Positions 11,516-59,596 of a stretch of 64,000 bases of DNA are shown one piece after another; positions within the stretch are counted from its first letter, which is position 1, and each line of letters starts with the position of its first letter. The position numbers were made by a program, and so were the translations under genes. The notes under the pieces are model-generated. The model was given only the letters and a program-made list of their open reading frames with translations. It had not been told where the DNA came from and did not search any database. Source of the DNA: Candidatus Poribacteria bacterium (lineage in GTDB: Bacteria; Poribacteria; WGA-4E; UBA9662); NCBI GenBank assembly GCA_046582655.1, contig JAYGDX010000073.1, forward strand, positions 31,746 through 95,745, given 5' to 3'.

Positions 11516-11517
11516 GG

Positions 11518-13402: not shown

Positions 13403-14152
13403 TTGAGGGGGATGGTAATGAGTAGTAAAGAAGAACTCTTCGCTCATCTTGACAAACACGGTTACGTTGTACTGAAGGGGGTTTTGACAGTGAATCAGGT
13501 TGGCGCACTGAGGGAAAGGTCAATCGAGCTGATAAAAAAAGAGCGGGAGTTAGGAGCACAATTATACTTAGATAACAGATCGCAGCGCGTATGGAATTTA
13601 GTGAACAAAGGCAAAATCTTTGCGGACATGATACAGCATCCGTCGGTATTGGAGTTTCAAGAATATTTGTTGGGAAATAATTGTACTTTAAGCAGTTTTA
13701 CAGTCAATCTGATAGGACCGGGGTCTCCCGTTTCCGGGCTACACATTGATTATCCATTGAGTAATCTTCCAACACCACACCCATCCTTTGCTCTTTGTGC
13801 CAACAGCGTTTATCTGCTTGATGATTTCAGTTTGGAAAACGGCGCTACACGGCTTATTCCTGGAAGTCACAAGCGTGGCTATGGTCCTTCACCCGGTGAG
13901 ATGTATGATGATGTTATTCAAGTCACTGGTAAGAAAGGAGACATTATTATTGTTCATGGACATATATGGCACAGTAGTGGCGAAAATCACACTGATCGGG
14001 ATCGCGTTGCTTTACTAGGTTTCTTCTGCCGTTCTTTTATGAAGCCACAGCAAGATCATCTGAAGCTAATTGCAACAGATATTATTGAAGAGGCCTCCCC
14101 CACTTTAAAGCGGTTGCTCGGCATGGATTCACAGCCAAACCTAAATGATTAA
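13403..14152 (+). CDS. PhyH family Fe(II)/2OG dioxygenase
   Basis: LFAHLDKHGYVVLKGVLT N-terminus and HxD...H context (GLHIDYP, HGHIWHSS). Start could be 13418 or 13427. Confidence 0.7.
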   Translation: MRGMVMSSKEELFAHLDKHGYVVLKGVLTVNQVGALRERSIELIKKERELGAQLYLDNRSQRVWNLVNKGKIFADMIQHPSVLEFQEYLLGNNCTLSSFTVNLIGPGSPVSGLHIDYPLSNLPTPHPSFALCANSVYLLDDFSLENGATRLIPGSHKRGYGPSPGEMYDDVIQVTGKKGDIIIVHGHIWHSSGENHTDRDRVALLGFFCRSFMKPQQDHLKLIATDIIEEASPTLKRLLGMDSQPNLND

Positions 14153-14270: not shown

Positions 14271-15155
14271 TCAGTTTGTTCGGTGCATGACAACGCCTTT
14301 AGGGTTTTCGAGGGCATCCATCCATAGTCGACACCACTCAGTGTGGTCTGTTAGTACATTGTCGGAATTGCTTGAACTGCGAACAACAAACGCCGGATGT
14401 CCAGTACGGCCAGTGTGCTGACCGGTCGGTTGGTATCGTAGATCAATTGACCAACGGCATGACTCTGAAAGGTTGAGATTTCCACGGTGGGGCGTGAATC
14501 TATGCATTAGAATTACGTCACCTTTGTAACAGACCATTGGAAGTGGTTCAACATCTGGCACGAGGTCAGGAATGATATGCGTTCCGCCCTCTGGACAATG
14601 GTCAAGATACCCTTTGCTGATGATTCCAGGTAGAATTTCCATACATCCCATTTCAAGTGTCGCATCACCCAGTGGTAGCCAACAAGTGGTTATTTTGGAC
14701 TTTTCAGCTTCTGGCATCATTACTGCCGCATCCTGATGTAAAGGAGCTATGTGAGAAGAAGATTCAGCATCCTGATAATATTTGATTGGTGGTGTAGGAC
14801 GAAGATGTTGTATGGGATTGCAGGTGATTTCAGAACCAACCAGGGATTCTACGACGTCAAGTAGGTTTTTGTTGTGGAGAAATTCAAAGATTGCTGGGCC
14901 GCGGTAATGCATGATATCTAATCCGTGGGCGATCTCTGAAGATTGCTCGAAAATTAGCCCAAAGCACTTCTCAAACGGTTCATTTTCGTATAACTTCCGG
15001 ATTTTCCCTGCCACCTTCAATTCGTGTGCCCGACGATAAATGAAAGCTGATATCTCGTCAATTATTGGTTGCAGGTCTTCATCAGTCAAGGCATTCTTTA
15101 CAATCAGCACCCCTTGTGTATTGAACGTATCGATCTGTTTTTTTGTCAACTTCAT
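14271..15155 (-). CDS. PhyH family Fe(II)/2OG dioxygenase
   Basis: QIDTFNTQGVLIVKNALT N-terminus and HQDAA iron-binding context. 294 aa. Confidence 0.7.
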   Translation of the reverse strand: MKLTKKQIDTFNTQGVLIVKNALTDEDLQPIIDEISAFIYRRAHELKVAGKIRKLYENEPFEKCFGLIFEQSSEIAHGLDIMHYRGPAIFEFLHNKNLLDVVESLVGSEITCNPIQHLRPTPPIKYYQDAESSSHIAPLHQDAAVMMPEAEKSKITTCWLPLGDATLEMGCMEILPGIISKGYLDHCPEGGTHIIPDLVPDVEPLPMVCYKGDVILMHRFTPHRGNLNLSESCRWSIDLRYQPTGQHTGRTGHPAFVVRSSSNSDNVLTDHTEWCRLWMDALENPKGVVMHRTN

Positions 15156-21340: not shown

Positions 21341-22179
21341 TTACACCAAACCGACAAGTTGTTTCATCTGGTCATCTATCATCTTTAGATGATCAGAGTT
21401 GAAACGTTCATGAATGGTCTGGCGAGCGTTTAACTCTTTTTCCTGATTCCCTTTTTGAGTGAAATTATATAAACAAACAAGTCGGGGTTGTTGCCGCAGA
21501 TTATCCGAAGCACTGTGTATTACCTGCCCATCATAAAAAAAAACACCTCCGGCTTTGAGGGCGATTTCCTCTGGATTCCAATCGAGTCCATCAAGATTGT
21601 CCTTGGCAGTATATGCATTGTTCTTTTCCTTTTCTGCTCGGAATTGTGGATCGGCTGCCGCTTTTTCGATAAGGTAGTGACTGCCTGGGACTGCCGTCAT
21701 GGCCCCGCCCGAAGGTTCAATATCAGCAAAAGTTAGCCAGGCGTTAGCGAAACTTCCTTCTCTCTCAAGAAAAGGCGTGTTAGAGAACCCATCAGTATGA
21801 CTCCGCCAGTTCCCATTTTTTAAACATCCACACACTTTTCCGAAAAAAGTAACAACGGGTATAGGTTCGGCTGAGAGCCGAAATGAACCATCAATCATGT
21901 GTGAAATCACCTCCAGCAATTTTGGATGTGTGGCAAATCGAGCGATTTCAGGAATACTGTGCTGAGGGGTCTTGAGTTGCCGTCGTGTTCCCCAGATATG
22001 GGCATAAGACTCTGGGGATTCGGGTCGAATTTTGTCAAGCAGAATGGCAGCTCCTTCTTTTGCTTCTCCTGTGGTAAGAACATTCTCAATAGTTGCGTAC
22101 CCTTGGGCAATAAATTGCTGGCGAAAGTCTTTAATATTTTGTTTTGGCAGAGGACTTCTCCTGAGAGTATTTTTATCAT
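21341..22179 (-). pseudogene. PhyH family dioxygenase interrupted by a 1-nt frameshift near the N-terminus (ORFs 21341..21919 and 21907..22179)
   Basis: Minus-strand frame shows a clean PhyH N-terminus NIKDFRQQFIAQGYATIENVL...HPKLLEVISHMIDG continuous with the 192-aa ORF but with no start codon. The ATG at 22179 lies in the adjacent frame. The frames meet in an A-rich tract (caaaacaaaatattaaag). Confidence 0.5.
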
Positions 22180-25106: not shown

Positions 25107-26072
25107 TTATAACTGAACAGCTTTACCAGTTCGGGCAGATTCATAGATCGCCATATTCAGTTCAATAGATCTCTTTCCTTCATACCCATCCACAGCAGCT
25201 TGCTTACCATTATTGATAACCTGAATTGCATCTTCAATCGTGTTCTTTGGATAATGGGGCAATTCAATTTCTGGTTCGTCTTCTTTGAAATCCCAAATGT
25301 TTGGTCCAAGTCCCACAACCCCTTTTGTGCCATGTATCTGAATCATTGAAACATTATTGCTTGGAAAAGTAGTTGTCGTGTATACAGTTCCAATCGCACC
25401 ATTCTTGAATTGCAAGATAGCAGTGGCCAAGTCTTCTGTTTCACAATTTTCATGAGAGTACACACCGAAGTGGGCACCAATCACCTTATCAACGTCTCCC
25501 ATAAACCATAGCATCAAGTCAACGTAGTGCACACCCTGATTCATAATGGATCCGCCACCGTCAAATTCCCATGTACCATGCCAGCCAACATAATAGCTGT
25601 CAGCACGGAACCATTTCATGCGTAACTCACAGTGGATTGGCTTGCCAATTACCTCGTTTTGGACAGCGTGTTGTATTCGTCGGTTATGTTCACCGTAACG
25701 TTCCTGAAAATCAACCAGCAGCTTAACCTCATTTTTCTCGCAAGCATCGATTAAAGCATCACAATTCTCAATACTTACATCCATTGGTTTAGTGGTGATA
25801 ACATGTGTTCCACGATTGGCCGCTTCTATTCCGATCTTGGCATGTAATCCACTTGGCAACATGATCATTCCAACATCAATATCGTCCCGATCAAACATCT
25901 CATTTGCTTCTGTGTAAGTATCACATCCAAATTTCTCGGCTGCATTATTACATCTGTCTTCATCGAGATCGGCCACCGCAACCAGTTTTGCCCCGTCTGT
26001 ATTAGCAATTTGATTTGCTCGGTTCATTCCCATTCCCAGACCAACAACACCAAAACCTAATTCTATGCTCAT
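25107..26072 (-). CDS. Gfo/Idh/MocA family oxidoreductase
   Basis: GFGVVGLGMG Rossmann motif and TKPMD (EKP-like) motif. Confidence 0.75.
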   Translation of the reverse strand: MSIELGFGVVGLGMGMNRANQIANTDGAKLVAVADLDEDRCNNAAEKFGCDTYTEANEMFDRDDIDVGMIMLPSGLHAKIGIEAANRGTHVITTKPMDVSIENCDALIDACEKNEVKLLVDFQERYGEHNRRIQHAVQNEVIGKPIHCELRMKWFRADSYYVGWHGTWEFDGGGSIMNQGVHYVDLMLWFMGDVDKVIGAHFGVYSHENCETEDLATAILQFKNGAIGTVYTTTTFPSNNVSMIQIHGTKGVVGLGPNIWDFKEDEPEIELPHYPKNTIEDAIQVINNGKQAAVDGYEGKRSIELNMAIYESARTGKAVQL

Positions 26073-31332: not shown

Positions 31333-32766
31333 TTAGACCTCAATCCCATATTCCTCAATTTTAACATGTAACGTGTTTCTGTTAATACCGAGGATCTCCG
31401 CTGCTTTGCTACGATTTCCTCCTGCTTTTATCAACACGATTTCAAAAAGCGGCTTTTCCATCGTTTCTCGTATGTGTTGATAAAGGGATCTGTCATCCAC
31501 TCCTGAATCTAAGTAACTCTCCACTTTGCTTTTGATTATTCGGCGTACGTGAATCTCCTGGTCTGATTCAACCGGCGTCGTAAATTTAAACTGCTCACCT
31601 AGTAGTTGAGGACAGTGTTCTGGTAATAGTGCAGTACCTGAACACATAACCAGTCCCTGTTTTATGATATTTTCCAGTTCGCGAACATTACCTGGCCAAC
31701 TGTGGTTCATCAGTAGTTCGCAGGTTTGATCAGATATAGCTACCTTCAGCTGTTTATACTCATTGGCAAATTGTGTAGTGAATAGATCTACAAGATCAGG
31801 AATATCTTCTTTCCGGTCACGAAGAGGTGGGATATGAATTGGTATGACATTCAAGCGATAATAGAGATCTTCACGAAAAGCATTCTCTTTTACATCCTGT
31901 TGGAGTTGACGGTTCGTAGCTGCAACCACGCGGACGTCTATTTTTCGAGACTGGTTTGCTCCGACCGGTTCCACTTCGCGTTCCTGCAAAACACGCAACA
32001 GTTTCATTTGTGTGTCAGCCGACAATTCACCAACTTCATCCAGAAAGATCGTGCCGCCGTTACTTTGTTCAAATTTACCTTGGCGGGATGAGTCTGCTCC
32101 AGTGAATGCGCCCTTAACATGACCGAACAATGCACTTTCGATTAGATTAGCTGGGATTGCGCTACAGTCAAAAACCACGAATGCTTGATCTGCACGATTA
32201 CTGTTTTGGTGAATTGCACGCGCTACTAATTCTTTACCTGTACCACTTTCACCCATAACTAAGACAGTCTCATTGCTAGTTGCGGCCCGACCGATGATTT
32301 GGTATACACGGCGCATTTCCAAACTCTGGCCAACAATTTTGCTGCCTTGTGACTTGGGACTGTCAGCATCAGAAAAGTCCTGACTCTCTTTTATCTGTTT
32401 GGTAGCATTGACGGCACGTTTTGCCGTAGCCGCGACTTCTTTGATATCGAATGGTTTGGTAATATAATCATACGCCCCTTGTTTTGCTGACTCGATAGCT
32501 GTTTGCGTGTCGCCATGTGCCGTAATTACCACAATCGAAACAGAATTTTGGATTTCAAGTATTTCAGGGATTAGATCTAAACCGTTAATATCCGGCATGA
32601 AAATATCAAGGAAGACAGCACTAACTGGATCTAATTCAAGTAGTTTTATTGTCTCTTTACCATCACGAGCAGGAAGCGGCAGATATCCCTCTTTTTCCAA
32701 GGCTTTCGATAGAACGAAACGGATGCTTTCGTCGTCATCGGCAATAAGAATTTTGTGTTCTGTCAT
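31333..32766 (-). CDS. sigma-54-dependent response regulator (NtrC family: REC + AAA+ + Fis HTH)
   Basis: Receiver Asp context ([10 protein letters not shown]). Walker [15 protein letters not shown] motif. C-terminal HTH. Confidence 0.85.
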
Positions 32767-32902
32767 TTTACCAACTTTGTTAGATTGACTGATATTGGCG
32801 GCTAACGGTAAGTTCCTTCACTTCAAGTTAGCTATGGTGTTGAATGTAGTACAAGGTTGTGTCAAGTTAATTGGCTAGCTTTCTGGAAATGGACTTAGCC
32901 CA

Positions 32903-34444
32903 TTAAATCGGCATCGTAATAAGAAACGCCGCCCCTTTTGGCGATGTTACATCAACTTCAATTGTACCATTGTGATCTTCAATTATCTGTTGGCTAATAG
33001 CAAGACCAAGCCCTGTGCCTTTTGGTTTCGTAGTGTAAAATGGATCGAAAAGTTTGTGGGTAATTTCCGGATGTATTCCACGCCCAGTATCTTCGATACG
33101 TAGTTCTATGACTGATTTTTCGAGATCAAAAGTCGCGTTGATAGTTAAAGTGCCATCGTTTTCTATAGACTCAATAGCATTCCGAAAGAGATTGAGCAAA
33201 ATCTGTTCTATAGCTTCTGGATTTACTTTAACCTTTGGCAGATATTGTTGATAATTTTGTTTAACTTCAACTTGGTGTTGTTTGAGTTCGGGGTCACAGA
33301 CTTTGAGCACATCAAATACAAGCGATTTCAAATCACACAACTCAAAATTAACGGCCTGAGATTTGCCAAAAGTGAGTAATTGCTCAATAACACGATTGAG
33401 GCGGTCAACTTCTTTTAAAATCACATCAATATAATCTCGACTGTTGGCATCAAAATTCTCTTCGAGTTGGAGGAGTTGTGCCGCACCGCGAATTCCTCCG
33501 AGAGGATTCCGTACCTCGTGAGCAACGGTCGTCGCCATTTTTCCCAATGTCGCTAGGCGTTCTGATTGAACGAGCGAATCAATCATCTGCTGGATTTTTA
33601 CGCGCTGGGCTGTAATTGAAGCAACAACGGTGAGAATCCGAAGTTCATCTTCAGCAGAAAATTCATCAGAACCTTTGTCAATTGCCAGAGTACCAACGAC
33701 CTTTTCATCGACAATTAGGGGTAAACACCAGAAAGCAATTGGGTTCTTCGACTCAACTGAATCTGCAAATGGAAAGCTATCATCACCTCTTCTCATCCAT
33801 TTGTGTGGAACACCGATTGGTCGACCATACTTTAATACTTTTTCTTGAATGACATCGATCTGCTTCCGATCTCGAATTTCTGCTTCTGTTAAGCCGAATG
33901 CCGCGTCAAGGTATTGATTCTGTTGATCTTTATCGTAGATATTAAGATGTGCTTGGTACAACCCCATGCGATTTGCTAAAATCTTAATAATCTGCTGGAA
34001 AAAACTTTCAAGATCATGGGCAGAATTTGCTGATGCACTGACATCGAAGAGTGTCGACATATCCCGAATTCTCTTCTCAAGATCTCGGTTGTCTTGATCG
34101 GTTCTCAGAAATTGATTTTTTACTTCCGTTTCCTTTGTTTTGAACTTTTGTATTGTTTGCAGAATGCAAAGAGAAATGAAAGGATAAATCATCACCGAAA
34201 CAGTAAAATGGTCCCAATTGTAGACAAAAGCAAGATAAATAAAGTTAATGATTGTTGTGAGTGCAAGAATCGTGAATTGCCCAGGACGATTATCGTATCG
34301 ACCTGAGAGAGCTATCAGGGCATAATATAGATGGATTGCAACATAATAATTTTGGAGATTGTCAGAACCATAGATAAAAATATTAATTAGAAAAATCAAA
34401 AACGTAAGACAGATCGTTTTCACTTCTGTTTCACTCAGTTCCAA
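32903..34444 (-). CDS. sensor histidine kinase with N-terminal multi-TM region and GAF domain
   Basis: H-box ATTVAHEVRNPLGGI. HATPase_c G-boxes (DTGRGI, GTGLGLAI). GAF-like segment upstream. Confidence 0.8.
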   Translation of the reverse strand: MELSETEVKTICLTFLIFLINIFIYGSDNLQNYYVAIHLYYALIALSGRYDNRPGQFTILALTTIINFIYLAFVYNWDHFTVSVMIYPFISLCILQTIQKFKTKETEVKNQFLRTDQDNRDLEKRIRDMSTLFDVSASANSAHDLESFFQQIIKILANRMGLYQAHLNIYDKDQQNQYLDAAFGLTEAEIRDRKQIDVIQEKVLKYGRPIGVPHKWMRRGDDSFPFADSVESKNPIAFWCLPLIVDEKVVGTLAIDKGSDEFSAEDELRILTVVASITAQRVKIQQMIDSLVQSERLATLGKMATTVAHEVRNPLGGIRGAAQLLQLEENFDANSRDYIDVILKEVDRLNRVIEQLLTFGKSQAVNFELCDLKSLVFDVLKVCDPELKQHQVEVKQNYQQYLPKVKVNPEAIEQILLNLFRNAIESIENDGTLTINATFDLEKSVIELRIEDTGRGIHPEITHKLFDPFYTTKPKGTGLGLAISQQIIEDHNGTIEVDVTSPKGAAFLITMPI

Positions 34445-35206: not shown

Positions 35207-35680
35207 TCATAACTGATCTATTTGTTTATACAAGTTGGTTATTTCGATTGCCGCTGCAGCCGCTTCGGATCCTTTGTTGCCCGCTTTTGTTCCAGCACGT
35301 TCAATTGCTTGATTAACGGTGTCAGTGGTGATAACCCCAAAAATTGTTGGGACGCCAGTTGCATACGAAACTTGTGCAATACCGGAAGCACTCTCACCTG
35401 CAACATAATCGAAATGGGGAGTAGCTCCCCGGATTACAGCACCAAGACAGATAATAGCATTGAACTTACCTGTATCTGCGAGTCGTTTAGCAGTGGAAGG
35501 GATTTCATACGAGCCGGGTGTGCGGAACACAGAGACATCATCCATATTTACACCATGACGTTTGAGTGTGTCAAGCGCGCCCTCAAGCAACCCATCAGTA
35601 ACGAAACTGTTAAATCGGCTGACAACAATTGCAAATATTAGCCCACTCCCAATTAGATCTCCTTCATAAATTTTTGTCAT
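35207..35680 (-). CDS. ribH: 6,7-dimethyl-8-ribityllumazine synthase
   Basis: Lumazine synthase length and conserved blocks ([14 protein letters not shown]). Confidence 0.85.
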
Positions 35681-35700
35681 GTTTCCTTGCCCTTTACCTA

Positions 35701-36933
35701 TTAATTGTCTATTTTCTGAAGAATCAGGTGACCCAGCTTCGATCGTTTTGTCTCAAGATACCGACAGTTGAATTGTTGAGGCGGGACCTCAATCGGCACG
35801 CGTTCGACAACTTCAAGGTTATACCCATCAAGACCACTAATCTTGCGTGGATTATTTGTCATTAGATACATCTTACTAATGCCAAGATCAGATAAAATTT
35901 GAGCCCCTATCCCATAGTCTCTGAGATCCGGTGGGAACCCAAGTTTTTCGTTAGCTTCGACTGTGTCAAGTCCCTCTCTATCCTGGAGTTGGTAGGCGCG
36001 TATCTTATTGCCGAGTCCCATCCCACGGCCTTCCTGACGCATGTAAAGTATGACGCCGCTACCTGCTTCCTCAATAGCTTTCATCGCGTATTCTAATTGT
36101 TGACCACAATCACAGCGTAGCGACCCAAAAATATCACCTGTCAGGCATTGTGAGTGAACTCGGACTAAAATTGGTTCACCGGAAAGAATTTCACCTTTAA
36201 CCAACGCAACATGCGTTTTTGCATCGTTTATGCTTTCGTAGGTGTAAAGTCTGAACTCACCATTTCGAGTTGGCAGATCAGCTTCAGCGACAAGCTTAAC
36301 TAGTGATTCCTTTTGGTGTCGGTACGCAATTAAATCAGCAATAGTAACAATTTTAAGGTTATGCAGAGAAGCAAAATCAAGAAGTTCAGGAGTGCGTGCC
36401 ATTGTGCCATCATCATTTAAAATTTCACAGACAACACCGGCGGGATATAAGCCAGCAAAATGTGCGAGATCAACAGCGGCTTCTGTATGGCCAGCACGTC
36501 TGAGAACTCCACCTTCGGTTGCTTGAAGCGGAAATATATGACCGGGTCGCATGAAGTCAGCCGCAGTTGCATCTGGTTCAATGAATCTTCTTATCGTCAT
36601 AGCACGTTCATAGGCCGAGATGCCTGTTTTAACGCCTTTAACATCAATTGTAACTGAAAAGGCAGTGCGCATAGTTTCGTTATTTTGATTTACCATTAAT
36701 GGTAAACTTAGCTCTGACAACCGTGCCGTCGTTGCAGGCAGGCAAATCATTCCCCGACCATGCTTTAACATGAAATTTATGGCTTCTGATGTAACCTTTT
36801 CAGCCGCCATAACCAGATCCCCCTCGTTTTCACGATCAGGATCATCCACAACGATAATAATCTCACCGTTTTGGATCGCATCAACTGCTTCTGGAATAGT
36901 GTTAAATCCACTCATTTTCGCATGTGTACTCAA
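35701..36933 (-). CDS. ribBA: bifunctional 3,4-dihydroxy-2-butanone-4-phosphate synthase / GTP cyclohydrolase II
   Basis: DHBP synthase N-half (DRENEGDL) and GCH-II C-half with Cys triad (CLTGD...CDCG). Confidence 0.9.
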
Positions 36934-36952
36934 GCATTAACCAAATAATTGA

Positions 36953-37552
36953 TTAGTTTTTGTGTTGACAAGCCAACAACCGTTCAACATAGCGACCAAT
37001 AAGATCTACTTCAATGTTGACCTGATCTTCTACTCGTTTCTGGCCCATGGTTGTTACTTCTTTGGTGTGAGGAATTAGTGATATTTCAAAAGAGTCATCT
37101 AACAAGTTGGCAATTGTTAAGCTCACCCCATCAACAGTAATTGAACCTTTATAAACAATGTATGGCATCGATTTTAGTGAAATTGACACACGCATAAGAG
37201 ACGAATCGCCTTCGTCTTTCCAGTCAATGATTTTGCCAACTTCATCAATGTGCCCTTGAACAAGATGCCCGTTAACACGATCAACGAGTCGAACAGATCT
37301 CTCTAAATTTACCGGTGATCCAACCTTGAGATCACCCAAATTTGTTAGCCGTAATGTTTCAGCAGTGATATCCGCATTGAACCTGTCCGAAGTGAGATTT
37401 GTAACCGTCAGACAAACGCCGTTAACGGCAATGCTGTCGCCGACTTTGCTGTTCGCTAAGGTCCTTTTTGCCTCAACTTCGATTCTGGCAGATTGGGGCA
37501 ATCTGTCAATTAGCTGAACTATTCCAACTTCCTCTACAATCCCGGTAAACAT
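36953..37552 (-). CDS. ribE: riboflavin synthase alpha subunit
   Basis: MFTGIVEEVG start. Duplicated lumazine-binding halves (VNGVCLTV / VDGVSLTI). Confidence 0.85.
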   Translation of the reverse strand: MFTGIVEEVGIVQLIDRLPQSARIEVEAKRTLANSKVGDSIAVNGVCLTVTNLTSDRFNADITAETLRLTNLGDLKVGSPVNLERSVRLVDRVNGHLVQGHIDEVGKIIDWKDEGDSSLMRVSISLKSMPYIVYKGSITVDGVSLTIANLLDDSFEISLIPHTKEVTTMGQKRVEDQVNIEVDLIGRYVERLLACQHKN

Positions 37553-37556
37553 AGGC

Positions 37557-38663
37557 TTAGTTCAGATATCCTTCAATGAGAAAGTCCTCACCAATTTTTG
37601 TGAATTCCCAATTGTGAATATCAATTGCTTCCGACAAATTCGTGATTCCGTTACCTCCGATCACTCCAGGGGCACTTTGACCGCCAATCAATTTTGGAGC
37701 AACGAAGAACATAACCTTATCAACAATACCTGCATCTAATGCAGAAGCGTGGATTTCGCTGCCTCCTTCGATAAGTATACTGGTTATACCGAGTTCTATT
37801 AATCTATTCATCAAGGATGTCAAACAAACCCGCTTATCATTGGAATCTACAATCAGTACGTCTGCACCTGCAGATTCAAGCTCTTCCATTTTCGTTCTGG
37901 GCGCAAATTCGGTTGTAGCAATGATAACCTTTGCACGACTTTCGGGATTGAAAATTTTGGCTTTGATTGGTGTACGGCAGCATGAATCAACAATGATCCG
38001 AATCGGGTCCTGACTGTCTCGATTGAGCAATCGCGTGGTCAAAGATGGATTATCTCGAAATACAGTACCAATGCCAACAAGGATAGCATCGACCATATCC
38101 CGAAGTCCATGTCCCTTTTGTCGAGCTGCCGGTGAGGTGATCCATTGAGAGTCTCCAGTTACAGTCGCAATTTTTCCATCAAGGCTAGTAGCCGCTTTCA
38201 GTATTACAAACGGCTGTTTCTTCACCATGTTTTTAATAAAAATTTCGTTCAACTGATATGCTTCATCGTGGCACAGACCAACTTCCACCTCTATTCCCGC
38301 TTGACGGATTTGTTCTATACCCTTACCCGCTACTATTGGATTGGGATCTTCGATCGCAACAAATATCTTGCTAATTCCTGATTGAACGATTATGTCAGTG
38401 CAGGGAGGCGTTTGTCCCCAATGGCAACATGGTTCGAGTGTTACATACATCGTAGCACCACGAGCAAATCCTTTTGCCTGATTCAAAGCCTGCGGTTCGG
38501 CATGCGGTGTGCCAGCTTGTTTGTGATAACCCTCACCAACGATTTGACTTGTATTAACGATTACCGCTCCTACCATTGGATTAGGGCTTGTTCTCCCACT
38601 GGCTTTGGCCGCTAGGTCTATGGCTCGATGCATGAAACACTGGTCTACTTCTGAAAACCCCAT
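37557..38663 (-). CDS. ribD: bifunctional diaminohydroxyphosphoribosylaminopyrimidine deaminase / 5-amino-6-(5-phosphoribosylamino)uracil reductase
   Basis: CMP/dCMP deaminase zinc motif HAEPQAL...PCCHWG plus C-terminal reductase domain. Confidence 0.85.
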   Translation of the reverse strand: MGFSEVDQCFMHRAIDLAAKASGRTSPNPMVGAVIVNTSQIVGEGYHKQAGTPHAEPQALNQAKGFARGATMYVTLEPCCHWGQTPPCTDIIVQSGISKIFVAIEDPNPIVAGKGIEQIRQAGIEVEVGLCHDEAYQLNEIFIKNMVKKQPFVILKAATSLDGKIATVTGDSQWITSPAARQKGHGLRDMVDAILVGIGTVFRDNPSLTTRLLNRDSQDPIRIIVDSCCRTPIKAKIFNPESRAKVIIATTEFAPRTKMEELESAGADVLIVDSNDKRVCLTSLMNRLIELGITSILIEGGSEIHASALDAGIVDKVMFFVAPKLIGGQSAPGVIGGNGITNLSEAIDIHNWEFTKIGEDFLIEGYLN

Positions 38664-39816: not shown

Positions 39817-39915
39817 TTCGATCTATTACTCCTAATTGGTCTAATACCAGTTTTTGACTTGACGATTTTATGTAGTGTCAAGTATATTCTTGAAATTATG
39901 CTGGTGAAAAAAGAA

Positions 39916-41340
39916 ATGACGTCTGTCCAACTGTCGGCTTTGCGACGTATTCCTGCCATCGAAAAGCTACTAGCTTCCCAATCCTTTCTTACCATTCAGA
40001 ACGAGTTTTCGCGGAATCTGATAACAGAAGTCTTGCGATCAGTTATTTTAGATATCCGTCAGCAGATAGGATGTACGCCGGGAGCAGTGAATCTGCCGGA
40101 TGAGTCAATGATTGCGGAGACGGTTCAAGAACGACTTAAATCAATCATGACTCCAAACTTACGGTCGATCGTCAACGTAACCGGTACGATCACACATACA
40201 AATTTTGGGAGGTCGATACTTAGCGATGTGGCCTGTGAGAGTTTGATTCAAGCGGCAAAGAACTGTGTTAACTTGGAATTTGATCTTGCCTCTGGTAAAA
40301 GAGGGCACCGAGACCAAATTACAGAACCGCTTCTGCAGAAACTTACCGGATGCCAAGCCTCAACAGTTGTTAATAACAACGCAGCGGCAGTTTTTCTGGT
40401 GCTTAACACCTTTGCACACGGTAAAGAAGTGGTTGTTTCACGCGGCGAATTAATAGAAATTGGTGGGGCATTCAGAATCCCGGATGTTATGGAATCCAGT
40501 GGAGTTATTCTAAAAGAGGTTGGTACAACCAATCGAACCCATCTGGAGGATTACGAAAAAGCTATTAATGAAAATACTGCTTTGCTTTTAAAAGTCCATC
40601 CCAGCAACTATCAAATTGTTGGGTTCACAGAAATGCCGGAGATGCATGAAATTGTCGAACTCGGAAAGCAATATAACATTCCAACAGTAGAAGATTTGGG
40701 TAGTGGATCACTTATTGATTTAAGTGAATACGGTTTGCCAAGTGAGCCGATTGTGCGTGACCGGATTGATGCAGGCGTCGATCTCGTCTTGTTTAGTGGG
40801 GATAAATTGCTAGGCGGGGCCCAGGCTGGCATCATTGTTGGAAAAGGTGGAATGATCAAGAAAATCCGCAAGAACCCAATCATGCGTACCTTGCGAGTTG
40901 GAAAACTGACAATCGCTGCTTTGGAAACCACACTGAGATTGTATCTCAACGACTTCAACCTAGATAAGAAACTGCCGATGCTTCACTGGTACACGCGTTC
41001 GTTGGACGAACTCCAACAAGTAGGGAATCATCTGCTAAGACAACTGGGTGAAACTTTAGGAGATGAAATCCAAGTTACCATTGAGGAAAGCCTCGCTCAA
41101 ATTGGCAGCGGATCTTTACCTGTTGCTAATTTGCCGAGTTTGGCAATCGTATTGAAATCGGAGCGACTGACTGCAAGCTCAATCGCCAAATGCTTTCGCA
41201 ACCAGCCAAGACCAATTGTTGGTCGGGTCCAAGACGACTGTTTTTGGATTGATCTCCGGACAGTCAACAACCAAGAAATTCAGTGGATCTGCGAAGCCGC
41301 AAGGTCAATCAGCCAAAAGGGTAACACAGAAAATTCATGA
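39916..41340 (+). CDS. selA: L-seryl-tRNA(Sec) selenium transferase (selenocysteine synthase)
   Basis: PLP-lysine block FSGDKLLGGAQAGIIVGKGGMIKKIRKNPIMRTLRVGKLTIAALETTLRLYL. N-terminus MTSVQLSALRRIPAIEKLL. The ORF-track start 39859 is trimmed to ATG 39916. Confidence 0.85.
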   Translation: MTSVQLSALRRIPAIEKLLASQSFLTIQNEFSRNLITEVLRSVILDIRQQIGCTPGAVNLPDESMIAETVQERLKSIMTPNLRSIVNVTGTITHTNFGRSILSDVACESLIQAAKNCVNLEFDLASGKRGHRDQITEPLLQKLTGCQASTVVNNNAAAVFLVLNTFAHGKEVVVSRGELIEIGGAFRIPDVMESSGVILKEVGTTNRTHLEDYEKAINENTALLLKVHPSNYQIVGFTEMPEMHEIVELGKQYNIPTVEDLGSGSLIDLSEYGLPSEPIVRDRIDAGVDLVLFSGDKLLGGAQAGIIVGKGGMIKKIRKNPIMRTLRVGKLTIAALETTLRLYLNDFNLDKKLPMLHWYTRSLDELQQVGNHLLRQLGETLGDEIQVTIEESLAQIGSGSLPVANLPSLAIVLKSERLTASSIAKCFRNQPRPIVGRVQDDCFWIDLRTVNNQEIQWICEAARSISQKGNTENS

Positions 41341-41702
41341 TAATCGACTGGTTCTATTTTCGACGATCTTGAACTTCCTGCCAGAAAGCGCAAGAGGTTC
41401 TTGACGTAAACAATTTTCAAGTTACACAGTATAGCTATGCAAACAAGGAAAAATTTGACCGCGAATTCACATGGAAGTTAATTCAAGAGGCTTCGCGAGT
41501 CTATGTTGCCAAGGGTAAAAAAATCGAGGTTTTTACACCGAGGCAACGCGATAGATCGATAATCCTAATGGCTTCGATTGGTCGCAGCGGTAATTTGCGA
41601 GCACCTACATTACAAATTGGTCAAATATTTTGCATCGGATATAGTCAAGAACTGTATCGGATGATCAGTAGGGATACCCTGAGCGCAATAGAATCGAACT
41701 GA
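41337..41702 (+). CDS. Spx/ArsC-fold thiol oxidoreductase-like protein with in-frame TGA (Sec) at 41370..41372; U-T-S-C motif (putative selenoprotein)
   Basis: Conceptual translation MIIDWFYFRRS-U-TSCQKAQEVLD...NLRAPTLQIGQIFCIGYSQELYRMI parallels Spx (SCTSCRKA...[22 protein letters not shown]). ATG overlaps the selA stop (ATGA). A stem-loop follows the TGA. No start codon exists downstream of the TGA in this frame until an internal Met. Confidence 0.55.
41389..41406 (+). promoter_or_regulatory. candidate bacterial SECIS-like hairpin (CGCAAG-AGGUU-CUUG(A)CG) 17 nt downstream of the in-frame UGA
   Basis: 6-bp stem with one bulged A. Apical loop AGGUU places G and U about 26-28 nt after the UGA, similar to E. 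coli fdhF SECIS geometry. Confidence 0.35.
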
Positions 41703-41712
41703 ACTGGTTGGA

Positions 41713-43911
41713 TTAGACCAAACCTTTCCATTTGCGCAAAAACCATTCGGTTCCGAGCAATCCCGCAGCAAGAATTAATATAATTGGACTATCCCAGAGA
41801 TCTTTTTCCTCGGTGACAAAAATTGATTCTCGAGAGTTTTTAATTTGACCAGGTAGTGACCTCGCTTCTGCGATAGGTAAGTACATACCTCCTGTCTGTT
41901 CTGCTAGTGATGTTAGTAATCCTTGGTTGAGTTGTGGATTCTCAAATTCAGCAACTTGTTGCTCAGCAAAAACTGTCACCTTGTCTTCTCCGATAGACGC
42001 ACCACCAAAAGTGCCTGATACTGTTAGCGTATATTTACCTTCCTGATCTACCAAGAATTCCGCTATATATCTGCCGGATACTGAATCATCTTGATTAGTT
42101 CGAATTCGGAAAACTTTTTTGTCTGGAAGTGCAACATCAACCTTAAGCCTTGCATTATCAAAGGGTTGATAGTTTTTATCATAAGTGTAAATGGTTACTT
42201 TAATCTTTTCACCAATTAGATACGTGTTTTTATCAGCAATAATATGGATCTGTTTAGTAGAAGGTTGGCTTGCCAGCCACCGTATTGCCTGCCCCCAAAA
42301 GCGAGAATAGCTGTCATCTTCATCTTTGAAATCCCATACTCCAAACCCCCAGTTCCAAAGGCCTTCAGCGGCAATTAACAAACTCTTCCCAAGGCCATGC
42401 GGCTGAAAAACAATGATTGGTTCGGGTGATTTTGATTGGTGAAATTCAGCTAGCGTTGTTGCCCCACTCCGGAGTTGAAACCCACCAATTCGTCTTGGGA
42501 GCGGAGGCAAATCCCGCCAGATAGCATCGTTTAATTTGCTTGTTTCTCCAAGTTGCATAATGGGATGGAATTTACCTTGTGTTGTTAAACGGAGTGAGAA
42601 ATCTTGATCCCGAAAACGGCAACCAATTGGTGGTGAAACGATTGGCAGTAAATCAGCTATCTCTGAACGTCCTAAACCGTTTCTGCCTAGCGAATTTTTC
42701 CCACCTAAAAACACAATTGACTTGCCGTGCTCTTCAACAAAACTCTTAATTATTTGTTGTTGATTTGAAGTAAGTTCATTTGCTTTAATATCACCAATAA
42801 TTAGCACATCATAAGCTAGTAATTCCGCTTCATTTTTTGGAAACTCTGGCTGGATTCGTGTATTCCTTTTTTTTAGCGATAAGACCAAACAGGTTGCTTC
42901 TATGTTTGGATCTCTTTCCAATACGCGTTTTAAGAAAGCGTAATCCCAGCGTGGCTGCCCATCGGTATAAAGGACACGGAGTTTTGACCTGACAACTTTA
43001 AGTGTGAATGTTTTCTGGTTGTTGTCGGTTGTCACCTCATTTTCTAGTGTAGGTAGCGAAACAAGGTATTGAAGCACTCCCTCCTCTCTTGGGGTAATAG
43101 TGAACGTAACAGTTTGATTCTCCTGATTTGACAAGGTAGTTGTTTCTGTGCCTATAACGCGGTCGTCCTGTTTAAGCATCAAGCGAATTTTCTTCCCCAT
43201 ATAGCCGATACTACGTATAGTTACCTTGATTTCTGCATTATGATCAGTGTAATTCACAGGACTGACTTCGATTTTGGTAATTCCTAGATCGTTCGGTGGG
43301 ACGGGGTCACCGACACCAATTGGGTAGATTGGCACCTTTAGACCCACAAATTGGTCGACCTCGAATTTTGACACATTGTGCCCGCCATCAGTAATTAATA
43401 CGACACCAGCGATTGTTTGCCCACGCCATTCATTTATGGCAGTTTGAATAGATCCAGTAATGTCAGTTAATCCTATGCCCGTTTGGATTTCAGGAGTTTT
43501 GTGAGGGACCTGTTTAAGGTCTTGATCAAACTGGTAAATATGCGTAGCGAAACGATTACTCAGCTGCTGAACGAAATCACTATCTCGACTGAATAGCAAA
43601 TGGTTCACCGGAAACATACGGTCAATTTTCTTACCGTTATGCAATACATCTTGAATTTCCATACTTTCCGATCTATCAGCTAAAATGAGTAGGTTATTCG
43701 GTGGGGTAATATCTATCTGCTGGACTAGAACTGGTTCAAGCAGACAAGTGAGAAGGATAGTTGCAGCCAAGATTCTTAGACAGATGAGGATTGCACGTAC
43801 TCTTGAAGAGACTGGACTTTTGAGCCGAATATAAACGAATGATGTTATACCGACAACCACTGCCAAGGCTAGGATTACCTGCCACAACTGCCAGAAATAA
43901 GTAAACCGCAT
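41713..43911 (-). CDS. large membrane-anchored protein: N-terminal double-TM (TIGR02226-like), vWA-like region (DRSESM) and C-terminal GATase1/ThuA-like domain
   Basis: N-terminal two TM helices, LILADRSESMEI MIDAS-like motif, and C-terminal ...YDVLIIGDI...IVFLGG resembling class-I GATase-like folds. Confidence 0.5.
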   Translation of the reverse strand: MRFTYFWQLWQVILALAVVVGITSFVYIRLKSPVSSRVRAILICLRILAATILLTCLLEPVLVQQIDITPPNNLLILADRSESMEIQDVLHNGKKIDRMFPVNHLLFSRDSDFVQQLSNRFATHIYQFDQDLKQVPHKTPEIQTGIGLTDITGSIQTAINEWRGQTIAGVVLITDGGHNVSKFEVDQFVGLKVPIYPIGVGDPVPPNDLGITKIEVSPVNYTDHNAEIKVTIRSIGYMGKKIRLMLKQDDRVIGTETTTLSNQENQTVTFTITPREEGVLQYLVSLPTLENEVTTDNNQKTFTLKVVRSKLRVLYTDGQPRWDYAFLKRVLERDPNIEATCLVLSLKKRNTRIQPEFPKNEAELLAYDVLIIGDIKANELTSNQQQIIKSFVEEHGKSIVFLGGKNSLGRNGLGRSEIADLLPIVSPPIGCRFRDQDFSLRLTTQGKFHPIMQLGETSKLNDAIWRDLPPLPRRIGGFQLRSGATTLAEFHQSKSPEPIIVFQPHGLGKSLLIAAEGLWNWGFGVWDFKDEDDSYSRFWGQAIRWLASQPSTKQIHIIADKNTYLIGEKIKVTIYTYDKNYQPFDNARLKVDVALPDKKVFRIRTNQDDSVSGRYIAEFLVDQEGKYTLTVSGTFGGASIGEDKVTVFAEQQVAEFENPQLNQGLLTSLAEQTGGMYLPIAEARSLPGQIKNSRESIFVTEEKDLWDSPIILILAAGLLGTEWFLRKWKGLV

Positions 43912-44022: not shown

Positions 44023-44361
44023 CTATACGCTAAAAGATTCACCACAACCACATGTCGAATTCGCGTTTGGATTCGTGATTTTGAAGCCGGACTCCATTAA
44101 ACCATCATTGAAATCGAGGGTTGATCCGGCAAGATAAAGCAGGCTGCGCGGATCGATCAAAACTTTTAATCCGTTGTGCTCAGTGATTTTATCATTGCTC
44201 TTTCGCTCATCAAAGCCGAGTTCATACTGAAAACCAGAGCATCCACCACCGACAACTTTCATTCGTAAGCCGTGTTCTTTGTCCTCTTCAAGATTGTCTT
44301 GCATCGACTGTTCCAATAGTAAGACTGCCTTTGCCGCAGCAGTATCTGTTACCGTAATCAT
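44023..44361 (-). CDS. iscA: iron-sulfur cluster insertion protein, HesB/IscA/ErpA family
   Basis: C-terminal NPNANSTCGCGESFSV signature. Start trimmed to the Met preceded by a GAAAAGGGG RBS. Confidence 0.75.
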   Translation of the reverse strand: MITVTDTAAAKAVLLLEQSMQDNLEEDKEHGLRMKVVGGGCSGFQYELGFDERKSNDKITEHNGLKVLIDPRSLLYLAGSTLDFNDGLMESGFKITNPNANSTCGCGESFSV

Positions 44362-44521
44362 AATAGCCCCTTTTCGTTTCTCCATTTGAAGAAACATTCT
44401 GATCATAAATTATAGTTAAGTTATGGACAAATGTCAAACTTAATAAAGAATTTACATTATCGTGCGACTGATGTATAATCTGGATTAATCCAAAAAGCTA
44501 ATATAGAACCGAAAAACGTGT

Positions 44522-46645: not shown

Positions 46646-46718
46646 ACGCCTGTAGCTCAGCGGATAGAGCAGGGGCTTCCTAAGCCTCGTGTCGGGGGTT
46701 CAAATCCTCTCAGGCGTA
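46646..46718 (+). tRNA. tRNA-Arg (anticodon CCU)
   Basis: Manual cloverleaf: acceptor ACGCCUG/CAGGCGU. D-arm GCUC-AGCGGAUA-GAGC. Anticodon stem GGGGC/GCCUC with loop UUCCUAA. T-loop GUUCAAAUC. Discriminator A. No encoded CCA. Confidence 0.8.
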
Positions 46719-50771: not shown

Positions 50772-51560
50772 ATGGAAAACATCTTGTGGTTTGCTATGCT
50801 GGGATGTCTTTTTGTAGGAGTGGGAATTGGGATTCTGATTACAAGACGAAGTAAGCAAATTCACAAACAACCTTGGCAAACACAAACAGAGCAGGCGCAA
50901 ATTGGTGTTCTGACCCAAAAGCTAGTTCACGAAATTCGGAACCCACTGAACAGCATTAGCATGAATCTGCAACTTTTAGAAGAGGATTTCTCGCAAAGTC
51001 ATGGAAATGATGTTAATTTAGCCAATAGAATTCATCGTGTTCATACAGAAGTTGACCGGCTTGATTTAATATTAACAAATTTTCGTCGATACACAAAGTT
51101 ACCCCCGCCAAACTTTGAGCTATCCAAACCGATAGAATTAATTGAGGAAGTTCTTGACTTCAACGAGCCAGAAATCCAAAGTCAGAATATTGAGATTAGC
51201 CGTGATATTGAGAATCTGCCACCTGTTGAGCTTGACCCGATCCAATTCAAACAGGTATTTCTTAACTTGATTATCAATGCCAGTCAATCAATGAAAAACG
51301 GCGGGGTATTGACTATTAGAGCTAAAGACTTAACCAATAAACTGCAAATCGAAGTTCAAGACACTGGTGATGGCATTGAGCCAGTTTATATCGATAAAAT
51401 CTTCGATCTTTTCTTCTCAACAAAGGAGGAAGGAACAGGAGTGGGGCTCGCAATTGTAAAGCAAATAGTCGAATCGCACGGTGGTTCCATCAATGTTAAG
51501 AGCCGTCCTGGGCACGGTGCAAATTTTTCAATTCAAATCCCTGTAACCCAAAACACATGA
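50772..51560 (+). CDS. sensor histidine kinase (TM + HisKA + HATPase_c)
   Basis: H-box LVHEIRNPLNSI. G-boxes QDTGDGIE and GTGVGLAIV. Confidence 0.75.
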   Translation: MENILWFAMLGCLFVGVGIGILITRRSKQIHKQPWQTQTEQAQIGVLTQKLVHEIRNPLNSISMNLQLLEEDFSQSHGNDVNLANRIHRVHTEVDRLDLILTNFRRYTKLPPPNFELSKPIELIEEVLDFNEPEIQSQNIEISRDIENLPPVELDPIQFKQVFLNLIINASQSMKNGGVLTIRAKDLTNKLQIEVQDTGDGIEPVYIDKIFDLFFSTKEEGTGVGLAIVKQIVESHGGSINVKSRPGHGANFSIQIPVTQNT

Positions 51561-52936
51561 GCGCAAAAATTCTGGTTGTAGATGATGAAAAATCAAGTGT
51601 AGAAGCAACAGTGGAAGTCCTTGAACGTGAAGGGTATGATCTCTATGCCGCAGCGGGTGGTCGAGAGGCCTTGAAAACACTTGATGAAGAAAGGATTGAC
51701 GTTGTCATCACTGACCTGAAGATGCCAGATCTAAGCGGAATTGAGCTTTTGACCCATATCCGTGATAGAGCGCCAGACACACAGGTCATTATCTTAACTG
51801 GTTATGGAACAGTTGACAGTGCGGTTAAGGCGATGCATGCTGGTGCAATATCGTATCTGCAAAAACCAGTGAATATTGATATTCTCCGTCAAACCGTTCG
51901 AAACGCGTTAGAAAAATGGGCACTCTTCATTCAAAATGTGAACCTGCGCGAGCAACTTGATGATAAGTTTGGATTCGATAACATTATCGGACGTTCAAAG
52001 CCGATGATTGAGCTTTTTCGCCTGACCCGGCAAGTAGCACCAACAAATGCGACAGTACTTATTACAGGCGAAAATGGTGTTGGTAAAGAACTGATTGCTA
52101 AAGCGATACATAATCATAGTCGTCGAACAGATAAGCCATATAAGGTGATTAACTGTGCAGCCCTGACGCCAACGTTGCTTGAAAGTGAGCTTTTTGGGCA
52201 TGAACGGGGCGCATTCACTGGCGCGACAAGCAGAAAATTGGGTATCTTTGAACAGAGTCATAATGGTACACTTGTCCTTGATGAGATTGGTGAAATGGGA
52301 CTTGAAGCCCAAGTTCGATTCCTCCGCGTCTTGGAACAGGGCGAATTTACCAGAGTTGGTGGTGACAAAACAATCACAGTTGATGTTCGCATTATTGCCG
52401 CTACCAATAGAGACCTGGAAGAAGCAGTGACGAACAAGGATTTCCGACCGGACTTGTATCACCGCATCAATAGATTTCGACTGAGAGTGCCACCGCTCCG
52501 TGAAAGGCGAGAGGATATTCCGTTGTTGGTTGACGTCTTCATCAAGGAGTTAAGCCGTGAGCATGTTAAACCAATCTCAGAAATCACGGTTAAAGCAATG
52601 GATTACCTCAAAAAGCAAGATTGGTCAGGCAACATTCGTGAGTTGCGTAATACAATCGAAACCGCCGTTATCCTGACGACGACAGAGTCAATTTCGATTG
52701 AAGATTTTTTTACTGATACTCAGAAGGTACCACAGCAAACAGAAGGTCCGGCTGGAGATTCTGTCGGCACAATTGGTATGACAATGGAAGAAATTGAGAA
52801 AGAGGCAATTCACAAAACTCTTGAGCAAACTAGCGGAAATAAAAAACAGGCAGCTGAAATCTTGGGAATTGGCCTTCGAACACTTTATCGAAAACTTGAG
52901 TCTTACGGTTGGATAAATGCTGAAAGAGAACTGTAA
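51557..52936 (+). CDS. sigma-54-dependent response regulator (NtrC family)
   Basis: REC domain. Walker A GENGVGKE. ERGAFTGA. C-terminal Fis-type HTH. ATGA overlap with the kinase gene. Confidence 0.85.
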   Translation: MSAKILVVDDEKSSVEATVEVLEREGYDLYAAAGGREALKTLDEERIDVVITDLKMPDLSGIELLTHIRDRAPDTQVIILTGYGTVDSAVKAMHAGAISYLQKPVNIDILRQTVRNALEKWALFIQNVNLREQLDDKFGFDNIIGRSKPMIELFRLTRQVAPTNATVLITGENGVGKELIAKAIHNHSRRTDKPYKVINCAALTPTLLESELFGHERGAFTGATSRKLGIFEQSHNGTLVLDEIGEMGLEAQVRFLRVLEQGEFTRVGGDKTITVDVRIIAATNRDLEEAVTNKDFRPDLYHRINRFRLRVPPLRERREDIPLLVDVFIKELSREHVKPISEITVKAMDYLKKQDWSGNIRELRNTIETAVILTTTESISIEDFFTDTQKVPQQTEGPAGDSVGTIGMTMEEIEKEAIHKTLEQTSGNKKQAAEILGIGLRTLYRKLESYGWINAEREL

Positions 52937-58570: not shown

Positions 58571-59596
58571 TTGTGGGACGGTATTTGGATGGAGAATTTT
58601 GGAATTGGTCTAGTTGGTGCTGGCGGCATGGGCAGAAGTTTGGTGCTGGAAGCCAACCAAATTGAAGGTGTTGAAATTATATTTGTGAGTGATCTTAATG
58701 AAAACAGGGCAAAGAGTTTGGCAGAGGAAGTCAATGCATCTTATACACTTGATTATCATAGATTGCTTAGTGATGACCGGATTCATGCTGTATTTGTCGC
58801 CTCTCCACCATTCTTGCACGCACCCATATCAATTGATGCCATGAATTCAGGTAAGCACGTCTTTTGCGAAAAACCGATGGCGACTACGCTTACAGACTGC
58901 GATGCCATGATCAAAACCGCAGAACAAAGGCAAGTGAGCTTGGGTATCGGTTTGGTTTGCAGATTTCACGCAACTCACTCAAAAGTGAGGGATGTTGTTG
59001 TAAGTGGACAGATGGGAAAGCCAATTAGCATACACGTGCATCGTATTGGTGGACCATGGCAAGGTGGTAGCTATCATACCGATTGGCGGATGCAACGCGA
59101 AAAATGCGGTGGATTTTTGATGGAGGTTAACGCACACGAACTCGACTTTATGCGTTGGACATGCGGGGAGGTCAAGAAAGTTTATGCCGCTGGAGGCATC
59201 TATATCCAGCACGAAGCAGACTATGCCGATCTTGTCGTCGCTTCTCTGAATTTCGAAAGTGGCGCCATTGGCCTCCTACACTCCGGTCAGGTTTCAGCTA
59301 TCGGGGGTTATGGCGGACGTGTTGATTGTGAGAAGGGATCTGTTTTTTTCCCGCAGATCTGGGATGGGGATTCGAAGATTCAAATTAAGAGATTTGATGG
59401 AAGCAGCGAAGATATCCCTATTTCCTCAATTGAAGTGGAAAGTCCAGTACGAGCTGAAATACGTGCATTCATTGATGCTGTCGTCAATGGAACACCACCA
59501 CCAGTCACTGGTGCCGATGGCCGAGCGGCCACAGAAATTGCGCTGGCCGCATACGAATCTATTGAAACCGGGGATCCTGTTAATCTGCCGATGTGA
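58571..59596 (+). CDS. Gfo/Idh/MocA family oxidoreductase
   Basis: GIGLVGAGGMG Rossmann and CEKPMA motif. Start may be Met 58589. Confidence 0.75.
   Translation: MWDGIWMENFGIGLVGAGGMGRSLVLEANQIEGVEIIFVSDLNENRAKSLAEEVNASYTLDYHRLLSDDRIHAVFVASPPFLHAPISIDAMNSGKHVFCEKPMATTLTDCDAMIKTAEQRQVSLGIGLVCRFHATHSKVRDVVVSGQMGKPISIHVHRIGGPWQGGSYHTDWRMQREKCGGFLMEVNAHELDFMRWTCGEVKKVYAAGGIYIQHEADYADLVVASLNFESGAIGLLHSGQVSAIGGYGGRVDCEKGSVFFPQIWDGDSKIQIKRFDGSSEDIPISSIEVESPVRAEIRAFIDAVVNGTPPPVTGADGRAATEIALAAYESIETGDPVNLPM

Follow-up and report, generated by a model that had tools for sequence, protein, structure and literature searches.

Within the 64,000-nucleotide stretch of Candidatus Poribacteria DNA analysed here (contig JAYGDX010000073.1; hereafter the window, numbered from its first letter), the frame at 41337-41702, which lies on the forward strand directly behind selA, encodes a member of the already catalogued selenoprotein family NF041106 ('arsenate reductase-like, UxxC'), a reading to which we give a probability of about 0.9. 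An in-frame TGA is the proposed selenocysteine (Sec, U) codon. The frame comprises 121 sense codons followed by the stop TGA at 41700-41702, its sole internal TGA is codon 12, and its conceptual translation begins MIIDWFYFRRS-U-TSCQKAQEVL. The gene had been proposed from the sequence alone by an earlier reader (hereafter the original prediction), and its coordinates hold in every particular, from the ATG at 41337 overlapping the selA stop to the stop at 41700. Standard open reading frame (ORF) callers overlook it, as had been claimed, because the next in-frame start after the TGA is ATG 41568, which leaves a fragment of only 44 aa in table-11 ORF finding. The features that carry the assignment are as follows.

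41337..41702, + strand: coding sequence of the ArsC-like (NF041106) selenoprotein, 121 residues with Sec as residue 12 (NF041106 match and family-invariant residues)
41370..41372, + strand: in-frame TGA, proposed Sec codon (residue 12; TGA at the aligned codon in 80/80 related loci, Cys in 13 catalogue homologues and Trp in 87)
41370..41381, + strand: U-T-S-C redox motif (UxxC), U12-T-S-C15, from the alignment to Spx C10-T-S-C13
41388..41407, + strand: hairpin resembling a selenocysteine insertion sequence (SECIS), GCGCAAGA-GGU-UCUUG(A)CGU; its stem counts 8 bp, A41404 is bulged out and GGU (41396-41398) forms the apical loop (comparative pairing and covariation)
41589..41606, + strand: G-N-L-R-A-P motif, residues 85-90, the family signature (invariant in family alignments A1 and A3; aligned to Spx G-L-L-R-R-P)

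With U replaced by C, the protein matches the NCBIfam hidden Markov model NF041106 ('ArsC_rel_Se_1', ArsC family (seleno)protein) at 111.5 bits against a cutoff of 85 (E 2.8e-32), its residues 3-107 aligning on positions 1-107 of 107, i.e., over the full model length. All family-invariant residues are present (W5, R9, U/C12, G60, G82, G85-N-L-R-A-P90 and G101), as is the nearly invariant C15, and the UxxC (or CxxC) motif expected of the family lies near the N-terminus. The protein shares with the family the full-length match above cutoff, the UxxC with its in-frame TGA, the invariant GNLRAP, a length within the family range (110-121 aa) and the nearest taxa (Desulfobulbales, Desulfuromonas). 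It differs in a C-terminal extension of ~10 residues (121 aa versus the usual 110-115), in having RRS-U before Sec where RKG-U is the common form, and in following selA immediately, the two genes overlapping in ATGA, an arrangement that otherwise occurs only in one sister genome, L001.

The family has a history in the selenoprotein literature, and the original prediction overrated the novelty of the gene. NF041106 is the 'Arsenate reductase 2 / arsenate reductase-like protein, UxxC' of two earlier accounts (PMC2398784, PMC13188914): the Global Ocean Sampling study (Zhang & Gladyshev 2008) counted 42 Sec and 238 Cys forms of 'Arsenate reductase 2, UxxC' (PMC2398784), and the family recurs in a 2026 review (PMC13188914). 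A 2022 review has the entry 'Arsenate reductase-like protein, COG1393, UxxC' (PMC9312934). Selenoproteins listed in 2006 for Desulfotalea psychrophila and Desulfuromonas acetoxidans as 'ArsC-like' or 'distant ArsC homolog' (Zhang 2006; PMC1794560) probably fall under NF041106 too. The Sec/Cys dichotomy, the UxxC motif and the family itself have thus been known since 2006-2008, a curated NCBI model exists, and the present gene opens no new question.

The main value of a correct record lies in annotation. Our first protein search returned 16 relatives, three with Cys at the Sec column (S-C-[AT]-[TS]-C) and two with Trp, the others being truncated just past the TGA. A profile built from 43 family members then matched 3678 protein clusters at E<=1e-5, two of which NCBI calls 'ArsC family (seleno)protein'. 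Among the 132 proteins retrieved in both searches (P0001-P0132), 87 have Trp at the Sec site, 13 have Cys and 32 are truncated at the N-terminus. The Cys forms, which include P0006, P0008, P0009, P0076, P0082 and P0126, carry S/G-C-x-x-C, so that the orthologues with Cys sought by the original prediction do exist and the pairing of Sec with Cys, a general hallmark of selenoproteins, is found here as well. Trp stands at the Sec column of catalogue entries because gene callers translated the TGA under an alternative code. Public protein catalogues therefore misrepresent this family systematically: 119 of the 132 entries examined are truncated or have Trp at the Sec position, and standard ORF callers are blind to the gene. 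The corrected record adds one selenoprotein to the Poribacteria selenoproteome and supports the reading of UGA as Sec in this lineage.

Conservation of the UGA codon and of a downstream hairpin

Species-representative genomes were scanned with the invariant motif G[RP][STG]GNLRAP[TAS], which confirmed at least 577 related loci; the comparisons below concern the best 80 of these, or 81 loci when the window is counted. The 80 loci come from Candidatus Poribacteria, Desulfobulbales, Desulfuromonas, SAR324, Calditrichaeota and others. The original prediction had named as its contrary outcome a conventional stop at this position in orthologous loci with no conservation downstream; instead, TGA occupies the codon aligned to residue 12 in 80/80 loci, and it is flanked on both sides by conserved sequence, the preceding 9-11 codons (M.IDWAYLRKG) as well as the following motif (.SC.KAQ). 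The nearest relative, L001, is a Poribacteria metagenome-assembled genome (isolate SP142) that shares synteny with the window for 12 kb or more, ribBA through secDF, with identities of 70-92%, and its selenoprotein is 73% identical to that of the window. Across the 11 codons before the TGA, the two genomes differ by two synonymous changes and by no replacements. The universal TGA, the conserved flanks and the purely synonymous upstream changes together rule out a pseudogene or a chance frame. A scan for further genes read through a TGA gave no other credible candidate in the window; among its TGA-readthrough frames outside the main ORFs, only 41337-41702 had homologues found, the rest being judged by eye and not searched.

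In bacteria, Sec is inserted when SelB binds a hairpin just 3' of the UGA. The hairpin at 41388-41407 begins 18 nt past the U of the UGA and places its GGU loop 26-28 nt from that U. It can equivalently be drawn with a stem of 7 bp and AGGUU as the loop, and it is in this form, about 26 nt past the UGA, that the original prediction had described the same element, which is now supported by covariation. Its pairing was examined in an ungapped alignment (A2) of 81 sequences extending from the TGA to +47, of which 78 distinct sequences were counted. At the four inner core positions 91-99% of these sequences form standard pairs, and compensatory changes occur at the loop-closing pair (AU to CG or the reverse, in 10 sequences) and at the next pair (GC to AU or the reverse, in 8). 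The lower stem has two registers, one bulged (GCG...A-CGC) and one continuous (GCUC...GAGC). For the bulged register the share of paired cells is 76.9%, versus 24-50% with the 3' side slid, and the covariation score of 0.339 compares with at most 0.203 in the slid controls and was reached by 0/500 shuffles. At least six of the eight pairs are retained in 60/78 distinct sequences, G occurs within the first two loop positions in 78/78 (the loops being GUU, GGU, GGC and UGU), and the mean minimum free energy (MFE) of the hairpin sequences is -7.2 kcal/mol versus -2.8 for shuffled ones. For the window, RNAfold gives -5.6 kcal/mol for the hairpin stretch alone. The MFE fold of 41365-41430 alone is a different hairpin that includes the UGA; it is non-significant (z -1.3) and was set aside in favour of the comparatively supported 41388-41407.

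The comparison with L001 points in the same direction. Nucleotides 31-87 of the selenoprotein gene are identical in the two genomes, with zero differences, and third-position identity falls from 97% in codons 1-30 to 54% in codons 31-121. The start of the gene is therefore under a nucleotide-level constraint beyond that exerted by the protein.

Fold of the protein and its relation to known systems

A match of the family profile to sequences in the PDB, together with a structure model of a Cys homologue, places the window protein in the glutaredoxin/ArsC/Spx/YffB group of thioredoxin-fold proteins. Searched against PDB sequences, the profile aligned 102 positions with Spx (1z3e; query 6-107, Spx 5-111) at E 7.8e-6, and it also found YffB at 3.8e-4 and ArsC-related chains at 2.8e-4 and weaker. 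The alignment pairs U/CTSC with Spx C10-T-S-C13 and GNLRAP...VGFN with GLLRRP...VGYN, placing Sec at the position of Spx Cys10 and reproducing both motif alignments, at the UxxC and in the C-terminal block, that had been drawn by eye. For the structure we used an AlphaFold2 model of P0076, which is 46% identical to the window protein, computed from an 82-sequence alignment (mean predicted local distance difference test score, pLDDT, 92.1; predicted template modelling score, pTM, 0.84). In this model the active-site Cys13 lies immediately before helix 14-25 and the R-A-P loop immediately before strand 91-94, which in the modelled geometry is a classical thioredoxin fold; GNLRAP (residues 85-90) corresponds to the loop before beta3 that carries the cis-proline in thioredoxin folds. 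Foldseek with the P0076 model places Spx, ArsC-related proteins and YffB on top, with template modelling (TM) scores of only about 0.5. Between beta2 and the second core helix the model has a helix and a beta-hairpin and not the helical ArsC/Spx subdomain.

Judged from domain models, the family is a distinct branch of the glutaredoxin/ArsC superfamily, with ArsC/Spx kinship only at the superfamily level, because 24 of the 43 members match PF00462 (Glutaredoxin) at E<=0.01 (best 1.6e-5) and 8 of the 43 match PF03960 (ArsC) at the same threshold (best 3e-4); one relative, P0126, has a precomputed PF03960 match. The best Pfam match of the window protein itself is a weak one to the glutaredoxin-like PF05768 (E 0.084).

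Comparison with the individual relatives bears out this distance. The window protein shares with Spx of Bacillus subtilis (PDB 1z3e, 3gfk, 6gho) a thioredoxin-like core, the UxxC at the CxxC position, and an aligned L-R-x-P loop and V-G-Y/F-N strand; it differs in falling far below the Spx/MgsR cutoff, in its middle subdomain, in Sec for Cys and in taxonomic range. Identity to YffB (PA3664; PDB 1rw1) and the ArsC-related structures 3gkx, 2kok and 2m46 is ~20%, with 30 of 112 residues not superposable, and the window protein adds to these a second, resolving Cys (UxxC) as well as the family-specific GNLRAP. Compared with glutaredoxins and NrdH-type redoxins (PF00462), it has ~35 extra residues between beta2 and the second core helix, lacks the CPYC motif, and reaches just E 0.08 on the glutaredoxin-like model.

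Linkage to selA and competing explanations

The gene forms a candidate two-gene unit with selA, the features of which are listed here.

39859..41340, + strand: selA, L-seryl-tRNA(Sec) selenium transferase (TIGR00474, 577.7 bits against a cutoff of 267.9; PF03841, 514.8 bits)
41337..41340, + strand: ATGA in which the selA stop codon overlaps ATG 41337-41339, the start codon of the selenoprotein gene (window sequence; same junction in the sister locus L001)
39859..39888, + strand: match to a sigma-70-like promoter, TTGACG and TATATT spaced by 18 nt, ahead of the likely start of selA (consensus scan, 10/12 matches)

TTG 39859 opens the longest selA ORF, which stops at TGA 41338-41340, and the true start is probably ATG 39889 or ATG 39907. 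The stretch 39859-39888 may be the promoter of the two-gene unit, for which the consensus match is weak evidence, the number of sigma-70-like sites in the region around selA not exceeding that in shuffled sequences. The 4-nt overlap would allow termination-reinitiation coupling between the two genes. The coupling to selA that had been emphasized in the original prediction is real insofar as the overlap exists; it is confined to the window and one sister genome, L001. At the other 79 of the 80 related loci, nine other Poribacteria included, selA is absent within 6 kb, and on this evidence the adjacency is a recent, lineage-specific arrangement and not a property of the family.

From these elements we propose the following sequence of events. 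The selenoprotein gene would be transcribed together with selA, as their shared strand and 4-nt ATGA overlap suggest, and ribosomes ending selA would reinitiate at AUG 41337. The hairpin at 41388-41407 would then recruit SelB with Sec-tRNA(Sec), so that Sec is inserted at UGA 41370, a step that we infer because the codon and the hairpin are conserved and the bacterial mechanism of Sec insertion is established. The profile match and the model of the Cys homologue assign the product to the glutaredoxin/ArsC-type thioredoxin fold, in which U12 and C15 open helix 1 and face the R88-A-P90 loop. Because a UxxC motif in such a fold points to a selenol/thiol oxidoreductase, the protein would most likely cycle between the selenol/thiol and selenenylsulfide forms and act as a small reductase of a disulfide, a persulfide or a similar substrate.

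Several observations weigh against this reading of the gene as an NF041106 selenoprotein with such a function. In Pfam the window protein has no match to PF03960 or PF00462, and even at E<=1 there is none to PF03960, the family to which it had originally been assigned. Neither selB nor selD nor tRNA-Sec, all of which the original prediction had looked to the genome for, is present in the 64-kb window, where selA stands alone with no selB after it; the sole tRNA, and the only match of a whole-window Rfam search at the gathering threshold, is tRNA-Arg(CCU) at 46646-46718. In this search for Sec machinery selA, adjacent to the gene, is thus the one component found; enrichment of SelA and SelB has been reported for bins of sponge symbionts from various phyla (PMC5649159). 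The hairpin belongs to no Rfam family (41250-41800 at E<=10), and the conserved encoded peptide KAQEFL may explain part of its conservation. No neighbour that would indicate a pathway is conserved across the 81 loci, and the oxidoreductase activity and the kind of substrate are proposed from motif and fold.

Four other explanations were considered. That the TGA is a real stop, the downstream frame being a pseudogene, a chance open frame or the product of UGA readthrough with an amino acid other than Sec, draws on the lack of direct evidence for Sec insertion at this gene and on the 87 catalogue entries with Trp at the site. We find it barely credible against the TGA of 80/80 loci spread over several phyla with purifying conservation on both sides, the synonymous-only differences from L001 before the TGA, the conserved hairpin and the presence of selA in the same operon; moreover, TGA ends 15 of the 54 main ORFs of the window, namely selA and 14 others, and the genetic code is therefore standard. 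A different proposal concerns the linkage to selA, which would be functional if the protein served selenium trafficking or activation (e.g., as a reductase of selenite or selenodiglutathione, or in handling perselenide for SelD) and were for that reason co-expressed with the Sec machinery. The ATGA overlap is indeed kept in L001, and a Sec- or Cys-containing rhodanese-domain protein is encoded next to the family gene in nine Desulfobulbales loci, the rhodanese fold serving sulfur and selenium transfer. The other 79 loci without selA, the unrelated housekeeping genes that neighbour the gene in Poribacteria and the absence of selB, selD and tRNA-Sec from the window nevertheless make this proposal quite unlikely. 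Only a slim chance attaches likewise to the idea that the overlap is functional in this lineage, either because the selenoprotein was recruited into selenium handling or because the decoding of its UGA ties its own output to the supply of SelA. If true, this would provide the first physiological role for an uncharacterised selenoprotein family, and the tandem rhodanese selenoprotein of Desulfobulbales would fit a role in chalcogen transfer.

The two remaining explanations take the ArsC and Spx kinship at face value. As an Spx/MgsR-type redox-sensing regulator, the protein would bind the RNA polymerase alpha C-terminal domain and use Sec in place of the sensing Cys10, a role that the original prediction had entertained. 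Spx chains are the top PDB sequence and Foldseek matches, and the UxxC aligns exactly to the Spx CxxC switch. Yet the protein scores 14.4 bits against a cutoff of 75 with TIGR01617 and 12.8 against 123 with NF002459 (Spx), and the part of Spx that contacts the alpha C-terminal domain, its middle subdomain, corresponds in the P0076 model to a different construction, a helix and a beta-hairpin. The carriers, moreover, are Poribacteria, Desulfobulbales and SAR324, and we know of no Spx system described outside Firmicutes. The regulator is therefore unsupported, and we hold it to be very improbable. No better placed is a true glutaredoxin-coupled arsenate reductase of the R773 ArsC type with Sec as the catalytic nucleophile. 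The family name, the superfamily relation and the Sec at the position of the catalytic Cys speak for it, and Sec-containing arsenate reductases are known as a separate family with the motif UxxS (PMC2398784). Against it, the window protein matches neither PF03960 nor, at E<=1, TIGR00014 (glutaredoxin-coupled ArsC), its dithiol-type UxxC is unlike the monothiol arrangement of ArsC, and no ars genes turned up among the Pfam-scanned neighbour clusters and the Poribacteria neighbours, most neighbours of the 81 loci being unannotated. We thus retain the reading of 41337-41702 as a gene for an NF041106 selenoprotein with a predicted ArsC/Spx-type thioredoxin fold and Sec for the first Cys of the CxxC, supported by the NF041106 match, the invariant TGA and the Cys homologues. 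The original observation and its interpretation were essentially correct; its only unusual feature, the selA overlap, is confined to the lineage, and a functional link is unsupported.

Neighbouring genes and other features of the window

The opposite strand upstream of selA carries the rib operon and a gene for a K+ channel. Downstream, the selenoprotein gene is followed 10 nt past its stop by a convergent gene for a 732-aa GATase1-like/MG2 protein. At the nine other Poribacteria loci the neighbours encode a GDSL lipase, a MocA-type oxidoreductase, an amidohydrolase, an ABC permease and extracytoplasmic function (ECF) sigma factors, and no two of the contexts are alike. In four of these nine loci the selenoprotein gene adjoins one for an ECF-type sigma factor that carries a large C-terminal domain fused to it (L002:2860-5754, L004:6506-8182, L006:6499-8259 and L018:6494-8179), which may be coincidence. 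Neighbour clusters across the 81 loci comprise histidine kinases, ferritin, an FAD oxidoreductase, Asd, an aminotransferase with BioG, and rhodanese, each at 17 loci or fewer.

The rhodanese-domain gene (PF00581) stands next downstream in nine Desulfobulbales-type loci (L033, L035, L039, L045, L056, L066, L067, L069 and L072), in L033 at 6336-7157, and where checked the gap after the stop of the ArsC-like gene is about 5-12 nt. Its active site has Cys (VY-C-HSGVRS) in L035, L056, L066 and L072 and TGA (VY-U-RSGVRS) in L033, L039, L045 and L067, so that the latter four loci have two selenoprotein genes in tandem. The neighbour is a possible redox, persulfide or chalcogen-transfer partner of the ArsC-like protein, and the tandem arrangement in some Desulfobulbales, together with the existence of cultured carriers such as Desulforhopalus vacuolatus DSM 9700 (L065) and Desulfoprunum benzoelyticum DSM 28570 (L077), offers a practical route to testing the function of the family.

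As HesB-like selenoproteins exist, we also examined a HesB/IscA-type Fe-S carrier gene at 44023-44406 on the minus strand, 2.3 kb from the selenoprotein gene; a Sec form was rejected, since the protein is an ordinary Cys form that ends in CGCG, and the stop of its gene is normal. The riboflavin operon (ribD, ribE, ribBA, ribH; 35207-38663, minus strand) is arranged back-to-back with the K+ channel/selA region, and no FMN riboswitch was found in the whole window at the Rfam gathering threshold. At 10182-11712, flanked by the genes of a solute-binding protein and an M81 peptidase, a 1.5-kb stretch has no ORF of at least 110 aa and no Rfam match; only a 72-aa ORF (10522-10740) and shorter ones occur in it. 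Elsewhere the window encodes four PhyH (phytanoyl-CoA dioxygenase) paralogues (5000-5818, 13403-14152, 14271-15155 and 21341-21919), three GFO/IDH/MocA oxidoreductases (1063-2112, 25107-26072 and 58571-59596), several amidohydrolases and two sigma-54 two-component pairs (31333-34444 and 50772-52936).

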